A DNA stretch of 64,000 nucleotides from Candidatus Pacearchaeota archaeon (GTDB lineage: Archaea > Nanobdellota > Nanobdellia > Pacearchaeales > GW2011-AR1), in assembly GCA_041651235.1 (NCBI GenBank), contig JBAZJQ010000001.1, forward strand, positions 558,449 through 622,448, given 5' to 3'. Of this stretch, positions 7,466 through 61,291 are shown piece by piece. Every line of letters starts with the position of its first letter. Positions within the stretch are counted from its first letter, which is position 1. The notes beneath the pieces are model-generated. The model saw only the letters and a program-made list of their open reading frames with translations. It had not been told where the DNA came from and searched no databases. Position numbers and translations under genes: made by a program.

Positions 7466-9829
7466 TTAAAATTCCCCTAATTTCATTTGCTTTTTGCCTT
7501 CTATTAATTGATTAATATCTACATTGAAAACTTCAAAGATGTTTTCAACTGCTGGAAGAATCTGATTGTTTAAATAATAATTAATATCATATTTTCCTGA
7601 TTCATCAATCATCTTAGCTCTGTCTCTTACAAGTGCTTTTTTATTATCTGATTCTGCAATATAATATTGAATTAACATGCCTAAATTAATTGGAATATTT
7701 TTTGCAATCATTTTTCTTGCAATTGCAATATGAGGAGTATTTGCTTTGTATTCATCAATTGATTTTTTTAGCTGAGTTCTTATTACTAATTCAGATAATT
7801 CAATTTTTCTTTCTTTAATTTTCTTAATTGTTTCTTTAATATATTCCAGTGCTTTTTTTTCATTTCCATCTGTAAGAATTAATTTTAGTATTTTGCTTTG
7901 AACTTCTCTTGCTAAATTACACCAGTCTCTTCTTACTGTTTCAAATCCTCTTATTTTTAGTTTATTATCTTCTGTAATAAGTGCATATTTCTTTTTTGCT
8001 CCAAATTCCCCTGTTCTTTTTGTTACCCAGATTCCTCTTTTATAGAAATCTTCCAGTTCCAGCTCCATTATTCCTGGAAGATGTTCATTAATTTGTTTTA
8101 ATAAATCAAGAGCTTGTTTTTTTGATTTGTTATCCAGACTTACTGCAATACTATCGGTATCACTATAAATTGGCTGAAAATTTGATTGTTCAAATTTTTT
8201 AATTGCTGATTTTATGTTTTCTCTTGCAAAATAAGCTGTTGATGCAGCTGCTTCTAAACAATAATATCTTGCTCCGAAAAATCCTTGATAACCATAAGCT
8301 GCATTTGCTATTAGCTTAAATGCATTGCTTCTTGCTTTTAAAATTGGATTGGGATTTTTATTATATTCTTTTTTAAATTCTCTTCTTTTTTCAATAATCT
8401 GCTTTAGAAGTTCAGGAAAAAATCCTGGTTTTTTTGAAAAATAAACTTTTTTATTATTTATTTCTGAAATTATATTTGTTTTTTCTTTGGATAGAGTTGA
8501 TAGACTGAGATTATAAGACACAATAACACTTGCATACATACTTGAGAAATCAAACATAGCAATATCATTGTATAATCCTGGTTTGGGCTGGAAAACAAAA
8601 GCTCCTTCATATTTTTCTCTTTCAATTCTATTTGAAATTTCTTCATGACTTGCTTTGTGCTTTGCTATTTCATTGAATTTATGGAGATTATGAAGAATAT
8701 AGTTTTCAACATTTTGAGACATTGAATCTCTAGATACATCATAAGGAGGTTCTTGAAGAACTCTTGAAAATTCTAAAATATCTGGCCAAACCTTTTCAAA
8801 TAATTTATATGTTAAAACTGAATCTTGAAGATTATATTCAAAAAAATCTTCCCAATGCTTTTGTGTATGTTCTGTTTTATTCATATCAATATGAGAAATA
8901 TCATTCTTTTTTTCTCCAATAAGTTCATTTGCAACTTCATTTAAAGAAAGAGTTTCTGACTGGAGATACTGGCTGTATGCTACTTGTATAAATCTAAATA
9001 AATCTACATGAGTTATTCCTTTTATTTTTCCTGATAAAACTCTTCCTCTGGAAAAAATAGGAGCAGAATTATCTAATCCTAGTGATAATTTTACTTTGTT
9101 ATGCTCTGCTCTTGCTCTTAAATAAGGCAAATCAAAACCATCTGAAAAATAACCTACTAAAAAATCTGGGGAATATTCTTTTATATATTTTACAAAAGCT
9201 TCTAGCATTTCTGCTTCATCTTTAAAATATTCAACAAAGGATTTTTTTGATTGTTTTTTCCAGGTAAGAACTTTTTTGAAATTATTACCTACTAATGAAA
9301 TCATTAAGATTTCTCCTTTTCCTATTTCAAATTCATTTGTTTCAATATCATAAGCTAGAAATTTCGGATGAAATTGAATATCTGATTGTGATTGTGTTAT
9401 TTTCTCTGCTTTAATTACAAAATCTACTTCTAAATTAGAACATTCATTATTTGATGCAAGTTCTCCTTCAATTTCCCATAACGTTAAAGGTGTTAGCTTA
9501 TTTTCAATTAAGAATTTAGTTATTATATTGATATCATTTTCATAAACTTCAAACTTTTCTGCAATTTCTTTTGTTTGTTTTGATGAGGAGGTATAAACTT
9601 TTAGTGCTTTAACTGGTTTTCCTAAGAAATTTTTGGATTCTTCTTGTATCTTGATTGTATCTAGTTTTTTCTTTGCCTTTTCTATATCTTTAATTATATA
9701 GCACCAGTCATTAAATTGCTTTAAGATACATAATCTCTTGCCTTTCTCATTTCTCCCATATACTTGAATATAGGTTTGATTATTTAGTTCAAAGGATTCA
9801 AAATTAATAGGGATAAATGTGAATTTCAT
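7466..9829 (-). CDS. polB: family-B DNA polymerase
   Basis: Exo I YDIETN, Exo II YNLQDS, Pol A DFSSMYASVIVSYNLS, Pol B KLIANAAYGY, Pol C YSDTDSI; 787 aa, no intein. Confidence 0.95.
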   Translation of the reverse strand: MKFTFIPINFESFELNNQTYIQVYGRNEKGKRLCILKQFNDWCYIIKDIEKAKKKLDTIKIQEESKNFLGKPVKALKVYTSSSKQTKEIAEKFEVYENDINIITKFLIENKLTPLTLWEIEGELASNNECSNLEVDFVIKAEKITQSQSDIQFHPKFLAYDIETNEFEIGKGEILMISLVGNNFKKVLTWKKQSKKSFVEYFKDEAEMLEAFVKYIKEYSPDFLVGYFSDGFDLPYLRARAEHNKVKLSLGLDNSAPIFSRGRVLSGKIKGITHVDLFRFIQVAYSQYLQSETLSLNEVANELIGEKKNDISHIDMNKTEHTQKHWEDFFEYNLQDSVLTYKLFEKVWPDILEFSRVLQEPPYDVSRDSMSQNVENYILHNLHKFNEIAKHKASHEEISNRIEREKYEGAFVFQPKPGLYNDIAMFDFSSMYASVIVSYNLSLSTLSKEKTNIISEINNKKVYFSKKPGFFPELLKQIIEKRREFKKEYNKNPNPILKARSNAFKLIANAAYGYQGFFGARYYCLEAAASTAYFARENIKSAIKKFEQSNFQPIYSDTDSIAVSLDNKSKKQALDLLKQINEHLPGIMELELEDFYKRGIWVTKRTGEFGAKKKYALITEDNKLKIRGFETVRRDWCNLAREVQSKILKLILTDGNEKKALEYIKETIKKIKERKIELSELVIRTQLKKSIDEYKANTPHIAIARKMIAKNIPINLGMLIQYYIAESDNKKALVRDRAKMIDESGKYDINYYLNNQILPAVENIFEVFNVDINQLIEGKKQMKLGEF

Positions 9830-18932: not shown

Positions 18933-19955
18933 ATGGAAGAAGGTATGAGCGATAAAACAGAGATGATGATTGATAATAATCCTGATAAGATGAATATTTC
19001 TAAGATGACTAATAAAATGAAAAAAAATCCCTGGATGGTTTCTAGTATTGTTTTAGGGATTATTGCTATTGTGTTATTAATAATTGTTATGAGGGGAGGA
19101 ATTACTGGAAATGTTATTGGAGGAAGTGATGCTGGTGCTAATTTAGTTGATTATCTTAATGAAAAGACAGGCGGAGGAGTTGAATATGTTTCTAATGAAG
19201 ATTTAGGAAACATATATCAAGTTACTGTTTCTTATCAAGGACAGGAATTACCTGTTTATGTTACTAAAGATGGAAAGTATTTTGTTCAGGGGGCTATTCC
19301 TATAACTGGGGATGTTGTGGATGAAACTACAACTGAAACACCTACCGAAGTTGTTAAATCTGACAAGCCTGTTGTTGAAGCTTATATTTTCTCATACTGC
19401 CCTTATGGATTGCAATTTGAAAAAGCATTATTCCCTGTTTATGATTTATTAAAAGATAAAGCAGATATTAATATTGTTGCAATTGGAGCAATGCATGGGG
19501 AATTTGAAAAAATTGAATCTTTAAGACAAATAAGTATAGAACAATTATATGGAAAAGATAAATTATTTGCGTACTTAAAAGAATTTGATGTTAATGAAGA
19601 TATTGGTGCTTGTAATGGAGATGATACTTGCTTGAATAAATATCTTCCTGCAATATATACTAAACTAGGAATAGATAAGACTAAAGTTGAAAATTATATG
19701 GATACAAGTGCAGAAGCAATTTATAATACACAAGGAGAAAAAGCAAGTTCACTTGGAATTTCTGGATCTCCGACATTTGTAATAAATGGAGCTCAAGTTC
19801 AAGTTGGAAGAACTCCTGAAGCAATAAAAGCAGCAGTATGCGATGCTTTCACAACTGCTCCTAGTGAATGTTCACAGACTTTATCTTCAACATCAGCTAG
19901 TGCAGGATTTGGAGCTTCTGCTGGAAGTTCTGCAAGCAGCACTGCGAGTTGCTAA
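18933..19955 (+). CDS. membrane-anchored DsbA/thioredoxin-fold protein with CPYG in place of CxxC
   Basis: Trimmed to ATG 18933. One TM helix, then IFSYCPYGLQFEKAL and C-terminal LGISGSPTFVINGAQV (DsbA-family cis-Pro loop region), then a Ser/Ala-rich tail. Confidence 0.55.
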   Translation: MEEGMSDKTEMMIDNNPDKMNISKMTNKMKKNPWMVSSIVLGIIAIVLLIIVMRGGITGNVIGGSDAGANLVDYLNEKTGGGVEYVSNEDLGNIYQVTVSYQGQELPVYVTKDGKYFVQGAIPITGDVVDETTTETPTEVVKSDKPVVEAYIFSYCPYGLQFEKALFPVYDLLKDKADINIVAIGAMHGEFEKIESLRQISIEQLYGKDKLFAYLKEFDVNEDIGACNGDDTCLNKYLPAIYTKLGIDKTKVENYMDTSAEAIYNTQGEKASSLGISGSPTFVINGAQVQVGRTPEAIKAAVCDAFTTAPSECSQTLSSTSASAGFGASAGSSASSTASC

Positions 19956-19968
19956 TGGAGAATTTATT

Positions 19969-34071: not shown

Positions 34072-34638
34072 TCAATTACAAACTTCTTTTTTCGGAATAA
34101 TTAATGTTTGATAAGAACAAGTTACATCTTCATAAGTTTCAAATTCTGCTTTGAATGTTTGATTTGATAAAGCTTCTATTGTTTTTTTAACATAAATCTC
34201 TTCTAGTTCTGAATTATCCAGTGAAAATTCTATTTCAAATTCTCCTGTTGTTGTTTCATCAAGATTATACAAATCTAAAGAACAAATTATTAAATTATCC
34301 TCTCTTTCTTGCTTGAAATTTTTTATTCCATATGAGATTTGTTTTAAAATGCAATTTGCATCTGAAGGAATTTCTGGTGTTGAAGTAGTTCCATCACTGC
34401 TACTTCCTCCCCTTCCTCCACCAGAACCTCCGCTTCCTGAACTGCTAGAACCGCTACTTCCAGATATTGTATTTGAATTAATATCTTCTGTATTAGTATT
34501 TATGTTTTCGTTGTTTTGATTATTATTTTCATCATCTATAATTGCATTTCCTGTTTGATTTGGATTTTTCATAATAAAAAATATTCCTGTTCCTACAATT
34601 AATACTATAAATAATATCAAGAATATTTGCAATTTCAT
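34072..34638 (-). CDS. membrane-anchored or secreted protein with an N-rich and Gly/Ser-rich linker
   Basis: N-terminal TM/signal, SGSSGSSSSGSGGSGGGRGGSS linker, Cys-containing C-terminal domain. Confidence 0.5.
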   Translation of the reverse strand: MKLQIFLILFIVLIVGTGIFFIMKNPNQTGNAIIDDENNNQNNENINTNTEDINSNTISGSSGSSSSGSGGSGGGRGGSSSDGTTSTPEIPSDANCILKQISYGIKNFKQEREDNLIICSLDLYNLDETTTGEFEIEFSLDNSELEEIYVKKTIEALSNQTFKAEFETYEDVTCSYQTLIIPKKEVCN

Positions 34639-38187: not shown

Positions 38188-38478
38188 TTGGGATTGATTA
38201 ACATCGGGATTAAGAGAAGTTGTTTGCAGTAACTTTAATCAATAAAATGGGCAAACAATTTGAGTTAATTTCAGGTTTTCACTAAGAAAATTGCAGATAG
38301 GCAAAAGAAATTACCTCTTAATCGCTGTTCAGGGATTTTTCAACATAAAAACATGAGTGGCGAACTAAGAGCCCTCGAGAGTCACAGATGAGTGGATGGT
38401 GGGAATGTTTGTCTAAAACCAATAGAATGAGAGAAATCACCTTTTTTGTTTCTTTTTTCCTAAAAAAGAAGTTTGTCT

Positions 38479-39104
38479 TTATCTCTTTTTTCTAAAGATT
38501 AAAAGTAAAACAATGATTAAAATCAATACTGCTAGACCATAAAATAAATACATCCCGTAACCTTCAAAATCCTAATTTGAACTTTCTTCAAAACTTAGGG
38601 CGGTAAGTGAACTATAATCTGGAATCTGTCTTTCTACAGAGCCAGTCATACCTTCTGGAGCAGAACCTCCTCCAAGAAGCAAACCAGGAGTTAGCTGCTC
38701 TTCAATATTCACTAAATCTTCATCACTAGCCCCAACAATAATGCCTTTAGCAGACAACATCTTTAAGGCTGTTGGAAGAAACTCAACTGCAGTATCTGCA
38801 TAATCTGGAGTGGTAAAAACTGAAAGATAATATTTATTTAAATCCTCGTCATATCTAACCTGGAAACCATTTCCACGACCACCTTCATCAGATAACTTAA
38901 AGATGATTGATCTCCAAGTGCTTCCATCATCAAAGATACAGGAGCCTTCTGAACAAAAACTTTCAATAGCATCCATATCTATCTTTATTTTATACCTTCA
39001 TTCAATTCAGCAAATCCAGTATTTCCTGGAACTAATGCAGAAGCCAAGTTAATTGAAAGCAAAGCTAAAAATAAAAATGTAGTAATTGAATATATATTTT
39101 TCAT
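38479..39104 (-). pseudogene. disrupted gene for a small secreted, C-terminally anchored protein (three pieces)
   Basis: Piece 1 is a 39-aa signal-peptide ORF 39104..38985 (MKNIYSITTFLFLALLSINLASA...). Piece 2 is a 134-aa body 38976..38572 in another frame; one extra A in the AAAA run would fuse them. Piece 3 follows an in-frame TAG at 38572-38574: DFEGYGMYLFYGLAVLILIIVLLLIFRKKR, a TM anchor ending at 38479. Confidence 0.5.
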
Positions 39105-39289
39105 GAAATAAATAGGTTTAAGGTATTTATAAATGTTTTTTTAACTTCAATGCTATTTGAAGTTAGTTTCATTCTATGAAATAAGAAAAATTTGGGAGAG
39201 CAATAGCGAATCTCTTAACCTTTGTTAGAAAAAGTGCGAAGCATTTTTTGAGTTTGTTTTGATTGGATAAAAGAAGTTTTTTCCTGTTT

Positions 39290-39560
39290 AGTTAGGCTAC
39301 AATCTGCTATCTAGGCGCGGGTGGTCGGGGGATGGCCTAAAGGATATTTTGCATTTTTAGTTTAGAACTTTCTTCTTCTGGGGCGGGGAATTCATTAGTT
39401 AAGCCAGATTCGAATTTGGGCGTAAGTCTGTGAACGTTTGCGCATAAGGAAAGTGCGAATGAAATGAGCATTTGGGTGAGTGAGTGCGCGAGCGAACTCT
39501 TTATGCGCTGTTCAACGAGGTGAGGACTAAGTCCGAAAGTGCAACGTCCCTTTAGCGTTT
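39290..39560. ncRNA. GC-rich non-coding island, candidate structured RNA (family not assigned)
   Basis: About 47% G+C by my count over 39301-39540, against a much lower background. No ORF of 60 aa or more in any frame. Stems GCGCATAA(39440)/TTATGCGC(39501) and GGAC-TAA-GTCC (39524-39534). GAAAGTGC[GA]A occurs three times (39230, 39449, 39535). Confidence 0.4.
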
Positions 39561-39571
39561 AGTTTGGAGCT
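39558..39571. repeat. left arm of a perfect 14-bp inverted repeat bracketing ORF 39609..39887
   Basis: TTTAGTTTGGAGCT; exact reverse complement at 39887..39900. Confidence 0.9.
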
Positions 39572-39608
39572 ACAAAAGATTAATAAGGTTGGAAATTATG
39601 AAATAATT

Positions 39609-39887
39609 ATGAAATCAATAAAAGAACTAAAGAATCCAGATATTATTACAATTAATAAAGAAAAATTTCAAGTTATTGAGAATTCAAGTGTCTGGTATCA
39701 TACAGATAGAAATGAATTAGAAATGGGAGTCGGATTAATTAAGATTGGAGAAAAAAGTATGACTCCCACACATGCCCTGCATTATATTTATGAAAAACCA
39801 GACAATATAAAATTATGGAAATTTTTCGCTTACAGTAAAGATAAAAAAGAGATGGAAGAGACTAATCTGGATTCTCATAATTTCTAA
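39609..39887 (+). CDS. hypothetical protein enclosed by the inverted repeat
   Basis: ORF-track start 39564 is a TTG inside the repeat arm; first ATG is 39609 (MKSIKELKNPD...); no motif. Confidence 0.35.
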   Translation: MKSIKELKNPDIITINKEKFQVIENSSVWYHTDRNELEMGVGLIKIGEKSMTPTHALHYIYEKPDNIKLWKFFAYSKDKKEMEETNLDSHNF

Positions 39888-39900
39888 GCTCCAAACTAAA
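39887..39900. repeat. right arm of the perfect 14-bp inverted repeat
   Basis: AGCTCCAAACTAAA, overlapping the ORF stop codon. Confidence 0.9.
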
Positions 39901-39914
39901 TGTCGATGAACATA

Positions 39915-39944
39915 ATCATATCATAACTTTAGTGATGATATGAT
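39915..39944. terminator. 10-bp perfect hairpin between convergent genes (terminator-like)
   Basis: ATCATATCAT-aactttagtg-ATGATATGAT. Confidence 0.35.
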
Positions 39945-39997
39945 ATCACTGGGAGATGTTAGTATAACTTCTAAGGGTATTTTATTTTAAAAAATAT

Positions 39998-41668
39998 TTA
40001 CATTAAATCTTCAATGTTTAGCTCTAATGTTGCAACTGGCATCTTAATTTTATTGTTCTTTAGAACATTAGGATTGGTTTCTCCTAAAATCCCAATTGAT
40101 TCCTGCTTTTTATCTTTATTAACTATTATCTCTCCTACTCTGCCTTCAATAAAACTTGAGTTTTCTGTTTCTCTTATTTCATATGTTTTATTTAGCATTT
40201 TCATTAAATAATCTAGAATTTGTTTTATTTCTGTAAAATTAGCTTTATCTGAACATATGGAAATACATAATTTTTCAGTTTCTTTTATCTGAGTTTCTGA
40301 ATTCTTGTAATCATTATCATTTTCAAATACTTTTCCTAATTCAAATAATTTTTGAGGATATTCTGCATTTGAATTTTCACTTAATATTTGAATTGATTGA
40401 GCTATTAATGAATTTCTTAAAATATTGTTTTCTGTTTTAGAATCAAGAACTTCAATTACTTTATGATTAAATTCTTTTATTGAAAGATTTTTGTATTGTT
40501 TTTCTTTTGTTGATAAATGGAATGTTGAAATTTCTTGTAATTTTAATCCAATTAAAATTTCTGATATTTTTCTCTTTAAGATAGCAAGAGGATTTTCTTC
40601 TCCAATTGTTGAAATTGCAGGGATTTCTTCTTTGAAATTGTCATAACCATATGCAATTGCTATTTCTTCTGTTAAATCAATTTCGTGAAGAATATCAGTT
40701 CTGTAGGCAGGAATTAAAGCAATAGCCTTTGTTTTTTGTTTTTCAAATCCAATACCCATTTTTTCCAATAATTTTATTATCTCTTTTTCAGTTAAGTTTA
40801 ATCCAAGTGTTTTGTTAATTGTTTCAATTGTAAATTCTAATTTTTCTGGTTCTAGGTTTGGGGATAACTCTGTTTTAGAGTCTTTTATCTCCATTTGATA
40901 GATTTTACCTTCCATATCTGCCAGAGAAGTTACAATCATGTTGAGGGTCTTTTGAAGATATTCTTTGTTAAATCCAGAGCATTCAATAAAAATATCTTTT
41001 GTATTTTCTGTTATTTTACCTGTTTTATGAGAGTTTATTATAGGGGGCATAGATAAGACTTCATTATTTGCATCTTGGAAAATTGGGAATAATTCATAAT
41101 CTTTTAGTAAATTTCCATATTCTCTTCCTGCTGGATGTTGAGATAAAATCTGTTTTCCTGTTATTTCTTTTGGAAATTCTAGTGGCTGGAATTTAATTTC
41201 TTCTGGTTTTTTAGCTAAAAAAGTAATTGGAAGTTTTATTGATTCTAATGGATAAATTCCAATTGCTAGTTTTTTTCTGTTTCTTCCATAACTTGCATGA
41301 AGTTTTTCTTGAATATCAATTATGTTTTTTATTTTTTCATCATTTAGTTTTAATCCCCTTACAATAGCACAAGCTGTAAATGGCCTTACATTTTTAACTG
41401 ATTTATCTATTGTTACTTTGAAATCTTTTTCTGGTTTTTCTAGTTTATATTTTTTAATTTCTGGTTTTTTTAAGAAACAACTTAGTGCTCTTGCAAATCC
41501 CTGAAAAGACAATAAATCTGGCCTGTTTGGGAAAACTTCGACACTTATTTCACTTTCACTTATTTCTTCAACAGGAGTTCCAAACATAGTTATTTTGTTT
41601 TCAATTTCAGATGTTATTTTTCCTATTTCTTTTTCAAGTTCTTTTTTGTTTAGTGTTAAGATTGTCAT
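39998..41668 (-). CDS. pheT: phenylalanyl-tRNA synthetase beta subunit (archaeal type)
   Basis: MTILTLNKKELEK...VEVFPNRPDLLSFQGFARAL (B3_4/B5 region), 556 aa. Confidence 0.9.
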   Translation of the reverse strand: MTILTLNKKELEKEIGKITSEIENKITMFGTPVEEISESEISVEVFPNRPDLLSFQGFARALSCFLKKPEIKKYKLEKPEKDFKVTIDKSVKNVRPFTACAIVRGLKLNDEKIKNIIDIQEKLHASYGRNRKKLAIGIYPLESIKLPITFLAKKPEEIKFQPLEFPKEITGKQILSQHPAGREYGNLLKDYELFPIFQDANNEVLSMPPIINSHKTGKITENTKDIFIECSGFNKEYLQKTLNMIVTSLADMEGKIYQMEIKDSKTELSPNLEPEKLEFTIETINKTLGLNLTEKEIIKLLEKMGIGFEKQKTKAIALIPAYRTDILHEIDLTEEIAIAYGYDNFKEEIPAISTIGEENPLAILKRKISEILIGLKLQEISTFHLSTKEKQYKNLSIKEFNHKVIEVLDSKTENNILRNSLIAQSIQILSENSNAEYPQKLFELGKVFENDNDYKNSETQIKETEKLCISICSDKANFTEIKQILDYLMKMLNKTYEIRETENSSFIEGRVGEIIVNKDKKQESIGILGETNPNVLKNNKIKMPVATLELNIEDLM

Positions 41669-44624: not shown

Positions 44625-45074
44625 TTAGTTAAAAAAAGCTTGTTTTGCCTGACTTGTAGAAGCTGTTAGGCTAAGAAATAAACTCATTATGTCTTGTTTT
44701 GATTTTTTATTAAGAATTATGATTTTGGTTCCTGTTCTTTTGCATAAATTAATATTTTGGATTATTCTTGCTAGAACTTCTGCTTTTTCTTTTTTAGGAA
44801 GTTTAGTTATTTCATTTAAATTAATTGCTATCTGAATGTTGTTTTGCTTGGCTAATTTGCATAAAACTTCATTTAAGCCAGAATCTCTTTGCTTTAACTT
44901 GTTTTTTCTATTATGCATCTCGGGACTTAATAACATATTTATATCTTTATTCTCTAGTAGTTTTCTGTTAAATTCATAATCTTGAGCTTTAACTATAATT
45001 GTTCTGTTTTCTTTTTTTAATTTTTGAATTTGCTTTCTAGCTTCATTTAAATTAGTTGTATTAATTATTTCCAT
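44625..45074 (-). CDS. RNase P protein component 3 (Rpp30-like), short form
   Basis: INMLLSPEMH...DSGLNEVLCKLAKQNNIQIAINLNEI...AEVLARIIQNINLCKRTGTKIIILN aligns by eye with Pyrococcus Rpp30 [38 protein letters not shown]...[25 protein letters not shown]. Confidence 0.55.
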   Translation of the reverse strand: MEIINTTNLNEARKQIQKLKKENRTIIVKAQDYEFNRKLLENKDINMLLSPEMHNRKNKLKQRDSGLNEVLCKLAKQNNIQIAINLNEITKLPKKEKAEVLARIIQNINLCKRTGTKIIILNKKSKQDIMSLFLSLTASTSQAKQAFFN

Positions 45075-45131
45075 ATTTATTGTATAATACAAATGTTTTT
45101 AAGCATTAAAAATGTTTTTGAAACCTGAAAA

Positions 45132-59914: not shown

Positions 59915-61291
59915 ATGAAACCTCCACTTTTAGATGAAGTTAGAAAACCTAGCAAAACTCTTGCTGGAGTTACTCCAATTGCAGTAATGTGCAAGCCTAA
60001 AAAATGCAGGCATGGAACTTGTGTTTATTGTCCTAGCTTGAATGTCCCTCAGAGTTATACCCCTAAGAGTCCTCCTGTACTTAGAGCAGAAAGGCTCGCG
60101 TATGATTCTTATGAGCAGGTTATTTCTAGATTAAATGCATTTGAAGCAATGCACCATCCTACTGATAAAATTGAAATAATTATTATGGGGGGTAATTTTT
60201 TAGAATATCCTGGTTTGTACCAAAATAATTTTATCTTAGGAATTTATAATGCTCTTAATAGAAGTAAGAGCAGGAGTTTAGAAGAAGCTAAGAAGAAAAA
60301 TGAAAAATCTTTGCATAGATGTGTTGCATTGTGTATTGAAACAAGACCAGATAGCTGCTCTTTAGTTAATATTAAAAAAATGCTTTCTTGGGGAACAACA
60401 AGGGTTGAAATTGGTGTTCAATGCTTGGATGATGAAATTTATAAAAAAGTTAATAGGGGGCATAAAGTTAAGGATGTTGTGATAGCAAGCAAAATCTTGC
60501 GAGATTATGGGTTTAAAGTTGGATATCACATGATGTTAGGTCTTCCGGGTTCAGATTCAAAAAAAGATTTGAAAATGTTTAAAGAGCTTTTTGAGGATAG
60601 TAGATTTAAGCCAGACCAATTGAAGATTTATCCTTGCCAGGTTTTACAAGGATCAAGACTTGCTGATTGGCATAAAAAAGGAAAATACAAGCCTTATACA
60701 AAAGAGCAAACAGAAAAATTATTAATTAAAATAATGAAAATTATCCCTAATTATTGCAGAGTTATGAGAATTATGAGAGAGATTCATCCTGATTTTTTAA
60801 TTGAAGGAACCACAAGAATTGATTTAAGAAAAGATGTTGAAGAAAAATTAAAAAAAGAAAATGCAGATATTTCTGAGATAAGATTTAGAGAAGTTGGGTT
60901 TAATTTAAGAGATTTAGAAAAGGGAGAAAAAATAACAAGAAGATTGAATCTTAAGATTACAAAATATAAAGCAAGTAATGGAGAGGAATATTTTTTAGAG
61001 TTTATTAATAAAGAGAATATCTTGTTTGGATTATTAAGATTAAGAGTTTTTGATAATAAGGCTATTGTTCGAGAATTACATGTTTATGGACAAGCATTAG
61101 GTATTGGTGAAAAAGGAAATTTATTTGGACAGCATTTAGGTTTAGGAAAGAAATTGCTTAGCAAAGCAGAAGAAATTGCTAAAAAAGAAAATGCTAACCA
61201 ATTGCAGATTATTTCTGGAGTTGGAGTTAGAGAGTATTATAAGAAGTTAGGGTATAAGTTGAAAGAGGAATATATGGAGAAGAAGCTATGA
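59915..61291 (+). CDS. elp3: Elp3-type radical SAM + GNAT tRNA uridine(34) modification enzyme
   Basis: KPSKTLAGVTPIAVMCKPKKCRHGTCVYCP cluster, IIIMGGNF, C-terminal GNAT VRELHVYGQALGIG...QHLGLGKKLL. Confidence 0.9.
   Translation: MKPPLLDEVRKPSKTLAGVTPIAVMCKPKKCRHGTCVYCPSLNVPQSYTPKSPPVLRAERLAYDSYEQVISRLNAFEAMHHPTDKIEIIIMGGNFLEYPGLYQNNFILGIYNALNRSKSRSLEEAKKKNEKSLHRCVALCIETRPDSCSLVNIKKMLSWGTTRVEIGVQCLDDEIYKKVNRGHKVKDVVIASKILRDYGFKVGYHMMLGLPGSDSKKDLKMFKELFEDSRFKPDQLKIYPCQVLQGSRLADWHKKGKYKPYTKEQTEKLLIKIMKIIPNYCRVMRIMREIHPDFLIEGTTRIDLRKDVEEKLKKENADISEIRFREVGFNLRDLEKGEKITRRLNLKITKYKASNGEEYFLEFINKENILFGLLRLRVFDNKAIVRELHVYGQALGIGEKGNLFGQHLGLGKKLLSKAEEIAKKENANQLQIISGVGVREYYKKLGYKLKEEYMEKKL

Follow-up and report, generated by a model that had tools for sequence, protein, structure and literature searches.

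A GC-rich, ORF-free island in a DPANN archaeal genome as a probable junction of an integron-like gene-cassette array

The GC-rich island without ORFs at positions 39290-39560 of the window (the whole 64-kb stretch of DNA analyzed here) is best explained as a junction in an integron-like gene-cassette array of a Woesearchaeota/Pacearchaeota-type DPANN genome, carrying an extended folded recombination site, a reading to which we assign a probability of about 0.7. The island is a composite in which the tail of a short cassette without an ORF and an attC-like hairpin precede the first part of the cassette that follows. A GC-rich, ORF-free island in a very AT-rich DPANN genome is not necessarily an RNA gene, since structured recombination sites give the same signal.

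Composition and folding of the island

The initial annotation had taken the island for a probable structured RNA with about 47% G+C and no ORF of 60 aa or more, and both measurements are borne out: the G+C fraction is 0.467 at 39301-39540 and 0.469 at 39290-39560, compared with a mean of 0.281 for the window (28% for the genome), and the longest ORF has 44 aa and lies on the minus strand. Windows of 240 nt with a G+C fraction of at least 0.46 make up 0.1% of the total, every one of them at the island. The accompanying claim that only tRNA genes are this GC-rich was slightly overstated, since shorter GC-rich patches exist outside the island (e.g., 19761-19960, 34341-34500, 38561-780, and 59961-60160). 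We propose that the high G+C content results from the stems of the site and its C(GNA)G mini-hairpins.

All self-complementary segments reported earlier were found at their positions. Conservation and covariation in relatives, on which the RNA proposal was to be checked, were found for two of them, GCGCATAA/TTATGCGC and GGAC/GTCC. The decamer GAAAGTGCRA, described as occurring three times, is exact at 39449 and 39535 and has one mismatch at 39230, where AAAAGTGCGA stands. Folded as RNA, the single island sequence gives z-scores of -0.28 (plus strand) and +0.38 (minus strand), neither of them significant, and folded as single-stranded DNA in its chromosomal arrangement it gives z = +0.57. We propose that the island does not fold as a unit because the chromosomal site is split between neighboring cassettes. 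What stands of the structured-RNA proposal is a conserved, covarying secondary structure at the island; its reading as an RNA gene fails.

Candidate RNA genes and other RNA-based readings

Rfam searches covered the whole window at the gathering score, 39000-39800 at E <= 10, and 24 related loci, and returned only tRNAs and chance matches to SNORA4 and rimP. RNase P RNA and SRP RNA, the candidates named at the outset, found no match at the gathering score or at E <= 10 and none in 20 related loci, and no RNaseP_arch, RNaseP-T, or Archaea_SRP match lies at the island. A tRNA had also been suggested as a target for ARAGORN, but this program and the Rfam tRNA model give only the four known tRNAs of the window and nothing in the island, where CCAGATTCGAATTTGG, which resembles a T arm, lacks an acceptor partner and forms a loop of 6 nt.

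Archaeal RNase P and SRP RNAs are, like the island, GC-rich, ORF-free, and of similar length, and they share with it short look-alike strings (GGAAAGTGCG, AGTGCAAC, GGCGCGGGTGG), whereas the island family is multicopy and holds these strings in variable hairpins or mini-hairpins. The supposed CR-I core of RNase P, GGAAAGTGCG, begins a local hairpin with no fixed sequence in relatives (its 5' arm reads AAGTGC, AAGTCGC, or AAGTTTTTTGC), and AGTGCAAC, taken for a further piece of RNase P, is instead a G-T[GCA]A-C mini-hairpin. Neither the CR-V and P4 pairing of RNase P nor SRP helix 8 was found in the island. A rod domain with two tip hairpins is missing from many family members, and the "Alu-like" 5' stretch is G-rich and present in five loci only (the window, L029, L034, L048, and L062). 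The Rpp30-like ORF noted nearby does exist (44625-45092, minus strand); it matches PF01876 at E 6.6e-6, under the Pfam cutoff.

Several other readings were rejected. A riboswitch or 5' UTR of the 92-aa gene downstream is contradicted by a conserved BRE/TATA-like box between element and ORF and by the 40 of 44 family members that do not adjoin that gene, and a coding N-terminal extension of the 92-aa ORF by a stop in the hairpin loop of the window copy and a 16-nt insertion in L018. A housekeeping RNA gene as integration target, which the linked recombinases would suggest, is contradicted by several copies per locus and by pairing across the ORF. Putative interdigitated T-loops (UGCAA) binding the tRNA elbow were reread as GCA triloop mini-hairpins, and none of the look-alikes of K-turn, H/ACA, C/D, BHB-intron, and hairpin-ribozyme motifs fits on inspection by eye. 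A closing helix between the 5' and 3' parts of the island is weak, its true partner lying downstream of the ORF.

A four-site array beside pheT

The window array comprises four sites in 1.8 kb (38196-39964), located between a 159-aa gene and pheT, the end of which is at 39998. In two related loci, L002 and L003, whose PheRS-beta is ~70% identical, the homologue of the 159-aa gene comes directly after pheT and the array is missing, and the segment 38190-39995 is therefore extra. No match pointing to a viral origin was found in IMG/VR or phage records, no GC-skew switch marks a replication terminus or dif at the array, and no recombinase gene is present among the ORFs within ~3 kb on either side of it.

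Site 1 (38196-38333, plus strand) is a solitary attC-like hairpin that starts 9 nt past the stop codon (38187) of the 159-aa gene and consists of R'' GATTAAC (38196-38202), L'' (38206-38216), a branched tip, L' (38314-38325), and R' G38327|TTCAGG. It matches positions 19-107 of the family profile in nhmmer (E 2e-4) and is homologous to two L029 copies and to L031. Cassette A (38328-39224) opens with a variant 5' module, GGCGAACTAAGAGCCCTCGAGAGT, common to L029 and L062, followed by a G-rich stretch (38390-38410), and carries two minus-strand ORFs, one GC-rich (134 aa, 38572-38976) and one signal-peptide-like (39 aa, 38985-39104), neither of which has a Pfam or PHROG match. It ends in the partial site 2 (39185-39230, plus strand), the right half of a hairpin site only, which reads ATTTGGGAGAGC...CTCTTAACC TTTG39224|TTAGAA. 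Site 2 is ~90% identical to L015 2436-2530, is also present in L062, and stops at the GTT point, as other solitary copies do.

Cassette B (39225-39510, plus strand), which has no ORF of 60 aa or more, takes in the island's 5' third, with its tail within the island at 39290-39428, and carries site 3 at its end. It contains a mini-hairpin, AAAAAGTGC-GAA-GCATTTTTT (39229-39249), and a G-rich motif, GGCGCGGGTGGTCGGGGGATGGCC (39314-39337), that recurs upstream of sites in L062, L029, L034, and L048. Site 3 (39429-39516, plus strand), the attC-like hairpin in the middle of the island, matches the family profile at E 3e-31. Its 5' arm is formed by R'' TGTGAAC (39429-39435), the spacer GTTT, and L'' GCGCATAAGGA (39440-39450), its variable tip (39451-39497) by the hairpins AAGTGC/GCATTT and GAGT-GC-GCGA-GC-GA-ACTC, and its 3' arm by L' TCTTTATGCGC (39498-39508) and R' G39510|TTCAAC.

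Cassette C starts at 39511 with TTCAACGAGG, and its conserved 5' module (39511-39571, plus strand), which contains TTCAACGAGGTGA, makes up the island's 3' third. Within this module, the hairpin GGAC-TAA-GTCC (39524-39534) is flanked by tandem G.A and a T39521-A39537 pair and covaries in relatives (GGAT/ATCC, GGGC/GCCC, and outer C-G to T-A); it is followed by GAAAGTGCAACG, by AACG/CGTT at 39543-46 and 39556-59, and by the inverted repeat IR-L, TTTAGTTTGGAGCT (39558-39571). A BRE/TATA-like box, CAAAAG ATTAATAA (39573-39586, plus strand), a putative promoter element, is conserved at every locus with a close homologue and also in L012, a distant one, and because its center lies ~26 nt before the ATG, the 92-aa mRNA is predicted to be leaderless. 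The 92-aa ORF itself (39609-39887, plus strand), the cargo of cassette C, has no Pfam or PHROG match and only 16 homologue clusters among 5.8 billion proteins, and its cassette occurs in five different gene neighborhoods; in some contigs, homologues of the ORF are called as 134-140 aa. The end of cassette C and site 4 (39887-39964, plus strand) include IR-R, AGCTCCAAACTAAA (39887-39900), a perfect complement of IR-L, followed by R'' GATGAAC (39905-39911), a short hairpin (39915-39944), and R' G39958|TTAGTA; the cassette sequence running up to 39958 ends in GGGAGATG.

A repeat family organized in same-strand arrays

The 3' two-thirds of the island (39403-39575) are a member of a repeat family in metagenome contigs. 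An exact-pattern scan with 32 nt (23 fixed bases, one R, and 8 free positions) recovered 44 metagenome loci, 4 of which adjoin the 92-aa gene. Among 45 nonredundant loci, 23 carry two to five sites, all on one strand per locus and spaced 0.4-1.5 kb apart, mostly with single ORFs between them (range, 1-3), and thus form arrays in the sense of at least two sites less than 4 kb apart in the same orientation with short ORFs between. The ORFs show no orientation bias, about half lying on each strand relative to the repeats, and encode acetyltransferases, HIT proteins, and small uncharacterized proteins. Sites resemble each other more within an array than between genomes. Moreover, the similarity of solitary copies holds up to GTT and is lost right after it, and one L062 hairpin is chimeric, with two halves of different types. 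The long hairpin domain is optional; copies without it read (A)GTATAA-TCGCTG-TTATAC(G), which may resemble the Pyrococcus dif sequence, and their inverted repeats span only ~7-8 nt per arm, compared with ~11 bp in a dif-type site.

Each full site combines the R box GTATAAC...G|TTATAC with an L box that covaries strongly, a tip that varies, and a conserved module past G|TT. In the structure alignment, 88% of cells are paired, compared with 79% in shuffles, and none of 500 shuffles reaches the observed values. The L box forms an 11-bp helix with 94% of cells paired and 8 of 11 pairs changed on both sides, its sequence being free, as in attC sites. The tip can be as simple as a 6-nt loop or hold branched inserts exceeding 100 nt, and whole sites measure from 95 to over 215 nt. 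On the 5' arm, a 2-3-nt bulge (TC/TCG) separates the R and L boxes, and L' holds one extra T (or a G.T pair), a layout that departs from the extrahelical bases of canonical attC. Wobble pairs (29 G.T versus 24 A.C) show no bias toward either folding strand. C(GNA)G triloops occur in 43 of 239 hairpins of the site regions versus 19 of 2415 outside, and only four GNRA loops lie inside; GNA triloops closed by C-G are a stable DNA mini-hairpin motif (PMC13037366, PMC3201870).

The R-box consensus is GTATAAC/GTTATAC; of 23 sequences, 22-23 retain AAC/GTT and the A-T pair next to it. Sites that fully match the strict RYYYAAC/GTTRRRY consensus number only 9 of 49 and 4 of 64. A Hadarchaeota attC published earlier has the identical boxes GTATAAC..GTTATAC (PMC9668308), and the same R boxes are present in published attCs of Archaea that underwent recombination with IntI1. 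The outer pairs of the R box show no coevolution across the junction and the halves match within the cassette; such a lack of coevolution is expected if the two halves at a junction belong to different cassettes. The conserved module past GTT, which contributes a pair of hairpins and a single strand of the closing stem, belongs to the next cassette, and the site does not lie wholly at the cassette 3' end.

Complementary cassette ends and reconstructed circle junctions

The would-be closing helix of the island pairs not inside the island but with sequence 315 nt downstream, past the 92-aa ORF. The two ends of one cassette complement each other with a mean of -24.9 kcal/mol (n = 23), compared with -11.8 kcal/mol across array junctions (n = 40) and -13.2 for unrelated ends (P values of 7e-11 and 2e-14, respectively). 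In 12 of 15 cases, the reconstructed circle junction has a more stable fold than the array junction, with two ties and one worse (means of -48.6 and -37.2 kcal/mol, P = 8e-4). For the 92-aa cassette of the window, joining 39885-39958 to 39511-39575 yields a four-helix single-stranded DNA fold of -28.8 kcal/mol with a z-score of -6.9, and none of 200 shuffles is as good.

Linked recombinases and a proposed mechanism

XerA-like tyrosine recombinase genes are found at seven nonredundant loci in 434 kb; at six of these, the gene follows the array downstream and shares its orientation. The best family of the four linked recombinases that were scored is XerA (NF040815, 217-246 bits). On TIGR02249, these four score 194-207 bits, under the cutoff of 265, and match it in two stretches that skip profile positions ~182-238; the IntI extra domain near patch III was not found in these four. 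The array-linked recombinases could be ordinary chromosome-resolution enzymes.

From these patterns we infer recombination itself, its exact crossover point, the strand and single-stranded state of its substrate, and the acting enzyme, as follows. A XerA-family tyrosine recombinase without the integron-integrase insertion would cut and rejoin DNA at or beside G|TT of the R' box, and the cassette would leave as a circle and go back in at another site. In the circle, the joined cassette ends would fold as single-stranded DNA into a four-helix site in which the cassette's terminal inverted repeats form a closing stem and the R/L-box hairpin, which carries the variable tip, stands beside two small hairpins; this site would be complete only in the excised circle because its halves sit at opposite ends of the cassette. 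We regard it as possible, although somewhat less probable than its contrary, that Woesearchaeota and Pacearchaeota possess a cassette system distinct from classical integrons, which uses a XerA-family enzyme without the IntI domain and a four-helix single-stranded DNA site complete only in the excised circle.

Discussion

The same repeats could be read at the RNA level, as structured intergenic elements (terminators, signals for processing or stability, or pairing of 5' and 3' UTRs around each ORF) with a role comparable to that of bacterial REP/BIME, the arrays being simply rows of small genes between elements. Real covariation in several helices, the GA-rich internal loops and GCGA tetraloop of the window copy, the intergenic position just upstream of BRE/TATA-like boxes, and one conserved G.T position favoring the plus strand all speak for it. 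We nevertheless consider it unlikely, since a leaderless 92-aa mRNA would exclude IR-L, which lies upstream of the TATA-like box, and the R-box halves match within the cassette without coevolving across the junction. Moreover, chimeric hairpins and half sites ending at GTT fit recombination and not RNA function, GNA triloops are DNA-typical while GNRA loops are rare, recombinase genes are enriched nearby, and the ORFs may run with or against the repeats. Much less probable still, and close to refuted already, is a stand-alone noncoding RNA gene (for a highly diverged RNase P RNA, an SRP RNA, or a new tRNA-like RNA) used as an attachment site. Such a gene would account for a GC-rich, ORF-free stretch in an AT-rich genome, a 32-nt pattern exact in 44 loci, a minimal unit of cloverleaf-like four-helix topology, recombinase genes downstream as at tRNA genes, and the Rpp30-like gene nearby. 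However, Rfam gives no match even at E <= 10, P4/CR-V and SRP helix 8 are absent, the island yields no significant fold z-score, there are several copies per locus with an optional long hairpin domain, and the closing helix pairs across a protein-coding ORF instead of within the element.

The cassettes might be miniature integrative elements that hijack the host XerA at a dif-like site, with no platform or enzyme of their own, analogous to the IMEX (CTX, TLC, VGJ) that pile up at Vibrio dif; the copies without the long hairpin have the archaeal dif layout of two inverted arms and a 6-nt spacer, the recombinases score as XerA (NF040815, 217-246 bits), and a folded single-stranded attP is also used by CTX phage. 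Yet seven XerA-like genes right beside arrays, mostly in one fixed arrangement, suggest dedicated copies, the GC skew does not switch at the array as at a terminus, and the window array sits between pheT and a conserved gene and not at a recognizable dif, which makes this explanation improbable in our judgment. Many copies with inverted termini, a variable interior, and a patchy distribution would also suit a MITE, a small nonautonomous transposon with terminal inverted repeats GTATAAC/GTTATAC inserting between genes. This we find hardly credible: copies within a locus all point in the same direction, an unsystematic look noticed no target-site duplications, the cassette-specific complementarity across the ORF is left unexplained, and clustering of neighboring ORFs yielded no transposase, the recurrent linked enzyme being a tyrosine recombinase.

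Read as a cassette junction, the island belongs to a well-populated family of arrays linked to XerA-like recombinases. If confirmed, this family bears on the origin of integrons from Xer-type systems and on accessory-gene exchange among ultrasmall symbiotic archaea. The distinct cassette system considered above, if true, would explain how archaeal attC clusters are mobilized without an integron integrase and would offer a possible intermediate between Xer/dif recombination and integrons. The splitting of the site between cassette ends, the closing stem, and the GNA mini-hairpins lead to testable predictions on excision circles and single-stranded substrates.

Comparison with known recombination systems

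Among the Archaea with reported integrons and attC clusters are Woesearchaeales and Pacearchaeales (Ghaly et al. 2022, PMC9668308); only six archaeal integron integrases were reported, and most attC clusters lack a known enzyme (PMC9668308). In the partial set of attC sequences taken from the supplement of that study, no overlap with the motifs of the present family was found (PMC9668308). The family shares with integron attC sites and CALINs the same-strand arrays, the short single-ORF cassettes, and the structured imperfect palindromes between them, as well as an R'' that ends in AAC, an R' that starts with GTT, an L box that is paired but free in sequence, and a variable terminal structure. 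However, its site departs from the attC definition because a canonical attC has 6 nt past the crossover (TTRRRY) and no closing stem, whereas the family has ~50-100 conserved or structured nucleotides past G|TT and a 10-17-bp closing stem contributed by both ends of the same cassette. It further differs from attC in its R-L spacer, a 2-3-nt one-sided bulge, and from integrons in having ORFs on either strand, apparently with their own promoters, and recombinases without the IntI-specific domain that lie downstream of the array and co-oriented with it.

With Xer/dif recombination and IMEX, the family has in common a XerA-family enzyme, a minimal site of two inverted arms and a 6-nt spacer presumed to be cut at its edge, tandem buildup at one locus, and a putative folded single-stranded substrate, such as CTX uses; the copies GTATAA-TCGCTG-TTATAC fit the archaeal dif layout described previously (PMC8371274). 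In contrast to these systems, dozens of different cassettes are present here, each with its own structured site, the array is not placed at the replication terminus by the evidence, and the recombinase genes are array linked. Unlike the family described here, the VCRs of the Vibrio superintegron are canonical attC sites, have a true IntI carrying the extra domain as their enzyme, and form no cassette-spanning stem. Like it, they exceed 120 nt, are highly similar within a genome, and lie between numerous small, uncharacterized cassettes of a sedentary array in the chromosome.

Composition of the island and known RNA families

The island at 39290-39560, which the initial annotation took for a probable structured RNA, is indeed GC-rich and free of long ORFs. 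Its G+C content is 0.467 (39301-39540) vs 0.281 for the window, G+C of at least 0.46 occurs in just 0.1% of 240-nt windows, every one at the island, and its longest ORF has 44 aa, short of the 60 aa used as limit. All the inverted repeats listed there lie at the positions given, and two copies of a decamer counted three times are exact, the third (39230) having one mismatch. On the single sequence, pairings in the island are not above chance (RNA fold z-scores of -0.28 for the plus and +0.38 for the minus strand).

Searching the 64-kb window against Rfam 15, we found four tRNAs and nothing else; at 39000-39800, up to E = 10, there was no match save two chance ones outside the island, and ARAGORN, in accord with Rfam, found no tRNA in it. 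The suggested RNase P RNA and SRP RNA, neither with an Rfam match up to E = 10 at the island, are thus unsupported, as is a tRNA. The "Alu-like" 5' stretch read as a possible sign of SRP RNA is a G-rich motif of an ORF-less cassette (B, described below). The Rpp30-like ORF noted 5 kb away exists (44625-45092, minus strand; PF01876 E 6.6e-6, under the Pfam cut-off), and an RNase P RNA is therefore expected somewhere in the genome, though not at the island; Rfam detects none anywhere in the 64-kb window.

An insertion with a conserved element

PheRS-beta groups the organism with Woesearchaeota/Pacearchaeota. In two relatives (L002 and L003, PheRS-beta ~70% identical), the homologue of the window's 159-aa gene directly follows pheT, which makes 38190-39995 an insertion in the window. 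Within it, just 3' of the island, lies a 92-aa ORF (39609-39887, plus strand). Its homologues form just 16 clusters in a set of 5.8 billion proteins, and the closest of them keep the island's 3' two-thirds directly 5' of the ORF. There, the loci carry compensatory changes, as the initial annotation expected of a structured element: GCGCATAA/TTATGCGC vs GCGGATAA/TTATCCGC, and GGAC/GTCC vs GGAT/ATCC. A 16-nt insertion in one relative (L018) shows that the conserved stretch is non-coding, and a conserved BRE/TATA-like box between element and ATG rules out a 5' UTR of the 92-aa gene. Scanning metagenome contigs for exact matches to the core pattern gave 44 loci, just 4 of them adjoining the 92-aa gene; with one strict pattern, one sub-family was sampled. 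In the 20 loci tested, Rfam gave no match at the element. Viral contigs and phage records gave no match.

Two further features of related contigs concern tRNA genes. Two contigs that also bear cassette sites have tRNA matches of 114-116 nt (L061 149-264, L057 3922-4035), suggesting intron-containing genes, and in L002 a 336-aa ORF (8041-9051, minus strand) overlaps the 5' end of tRNA-Thr(GGU) (7983-8055) by ~15 nt.

Proposed sites and cassettes, and the window map

The family unit consists, 5' to 3', of a left stem strand (~15 nt), R'' (GTATAAC), a 2-3-nt bulge, L'' (11 nt), a variable tip ranging from a 6-nt loop to >100 nt with branches, L' (the partner of L''), R' (G|TTATAC), the conserved stretch GAKGCGA, a small hairpin GGAC-GAA-GTCC with tandem G.A on its flanks, a second conserved stretch GARAGTGCAACG, a variable second hairpin or loop, and a right stem strand (~15 nt). 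In a 24-sequence alignment, 88% of cells pair vs 79% in shuffles (0/500 shuffles reach the observed values), and pairing falls to ~40% when partners are slid by 1-3 columns. The L box has both-sided changes in 8 of its 11 pairs. The R box keeps its inner AACA/TGTT pairs alone, with frequent mismatches in the outer ones, which was the first clue that each half has a history of its own.

The family profile occurs in 2-5 copies each in 23 of 45 non-redundant loci, always on the same strand. Copies are spaced by 0.4-1.5 kb, and single ORFs of 60-400 aa, in either orientation, lie in the intervals. Sites take three forms: the hairpin alone, the hairpin with the conserved module, and a minimal GTATAA-TCGCTG-TTATAC with the module. 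Solitary hairpins are alike up to GTT and divergent beyond (GTT|CAGGG, GTT|AGAAA, GTT|CTTTG), and the crossover would lie at or next to G|TT, judging from this loss of similarity and from the integron model. One hairpin, ~130 nt upstream of the core in L062, combines a 5' arm of GGGATAAGG type with a 3' arm of CTTTAAGCCC type and looks like a recombinant of two site types. Long variable tips in five contigs (L045, L052, L062, L035, L051) have in common a module, …TCTCCTCGTGAAACAGAGCTGAGAA…, with GA-rich internal loops, which seems to travel between sites as a unit.

In the window, site 1 (38196-38333) is followed by cassette A (38328-39224), half site 2 (39185-39230), cassette B (39225-39510), site 3 (39429-39516, the middle of the island), cassette C (39511-39958; conserved module, promoter-like box, 92-aa ORF, right inverted repeat) and site 4 (39887-39964), with the pheT end at 39998. 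Thus, the island is the tail of cassette B, site 3, and the head of cassette C.

On its minus strand (38572-39104), cassette A bears a 134-aa ORF of 43-45% G+C, far over the genome mean, without a Pfam or PHROG match; a signal-peptide-like 39-aa ORF precedes it in another frame, and the two may be one foreign gene with a frameshift. Just 5' of half site 2, a perfect 9-bp inverted repeat with a 6-nt spacer (39142-39165; TAACTTCAA TGCTAT TTGAAGTTA) is laid out like a classical tyrosine-recombinase core site or a bidirectional terminator. The G-rich motif GGGGCGGGTGGTCGGGGGATGGC of cassette B (39314-39337) has a weaker variant at 38390-38410 and others in L062, L029 (two copies), L034, and L048, 45-100 nt 5' of sites, inside cassettes that lack an ORF or at the ends of cassettes. 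Candidate roles for the motif are a G-quadruplex, a small RNA, and a site for protein binding.

Pairing of cassette ends and the folding molecule

The presumed closing strand pairs with the far end of the same cassette, past the ORF, and not across the junction. Mean duplex energy is -24.9 kcal/mol within cassettes (n=23), vs -11.8 across same-site junctions (n=40; p 7e-11) and -13.2 between unrelated cassette ends (n=506; p 2e-14). Since the pairing sequences vary widely among cassettes, it is complementarity that is kept and not a protein-binding word. In 15 cases folded as single-stranded DNA, cassette ends rejoined as they would be in an excised circle did better than array junctions 12 times, equally well twice and worse once (mean -48.6 vs -37.2 kcal/mol, Wilcoxon p 8e-4). 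For cassette C, the joined ends (39885-39958 + 39511-39575) fold at -28.8 kcal/mol (z -6.9), with a closing stem of 15-17 bp (AGCTCCAAACTAAA / TTTAGTTTGGAGCT), a short hairpin, GGAC-TAA-GTCC, and an R box TGAACAT/ATG|TTCA, in which the unusual TTCA complements the cassette's own unusual TGAA; in the chromosomal arrangement, the island's fold has z +0.57.

The repeats might instead act at the RNA level, which we consider unlikely. In site hairpins, triloops of the form C(GNA)G or T(GCA)A predominate overwhelmingly; within site regions they cap 43 of 239 hairpins, vs 19 of 2415 outside. GNRA loops inside number four. C-G-closed GNA triloops form "extraordinarily stable" DNA mini-hairpins (PMC13037366, PMC3201870), and the exact mini-hairpin word GCGAAGC (or GCGTAGC) recurs at hairpin tips, as at 39235-39241 in the window (within 39229-39249) and in L030, L059, L048, L026, and L035. 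The triloop excess favours folding at the DNA level, short of proof. Wobble counts show no strand preference; we infer both the folding strand and the single-stranded state of the sites.

Linked recombinases and comparison with known systems

XerA-like tyrosine recombinase genes occur at 7 non-redundant loci in 434 kb, 6 of them downstream of an array and co-oriented with it; in L062, the gene (8492-9271) directly follows the last array site. Three of four recombinases tested attain the XerA model cut-off, none of the four attains that of the integron-integrase model, and all skip its specific insertion. The linked enzymes could be ordinary XerA. The solitary hairpins, the chimeric hairpin of L062, and these linked genes fit with recombination; no recombination product turned up.

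Among known systems, the integron cassette array comes closest. Archaea, Woesearchaeales and Pacearchaeales among them, are reported to have integrons and integrase-less attC clusters (PMC9668308), and one published archaeal attC has GTATAAC...GTTATAC boxes identical to those of the family. Arrays, the L box, and the variable tip are shared with integrons, and the R boxes resemble theirs. Unlike integron attC, the family site extends past the cassette's 3' end, and the enzyme linked to the arrays is not IntI. The minimal form may resemble the Pyrococcus dif sequence. In its layout, with an arm on each side of a 6-nt spacer, it is also like a Xer/dif site (PMC8371274). With some integron features present, others absent, and this likeness to dif, we file the system as one that works like integron cassettes, a variant and not a proven member.
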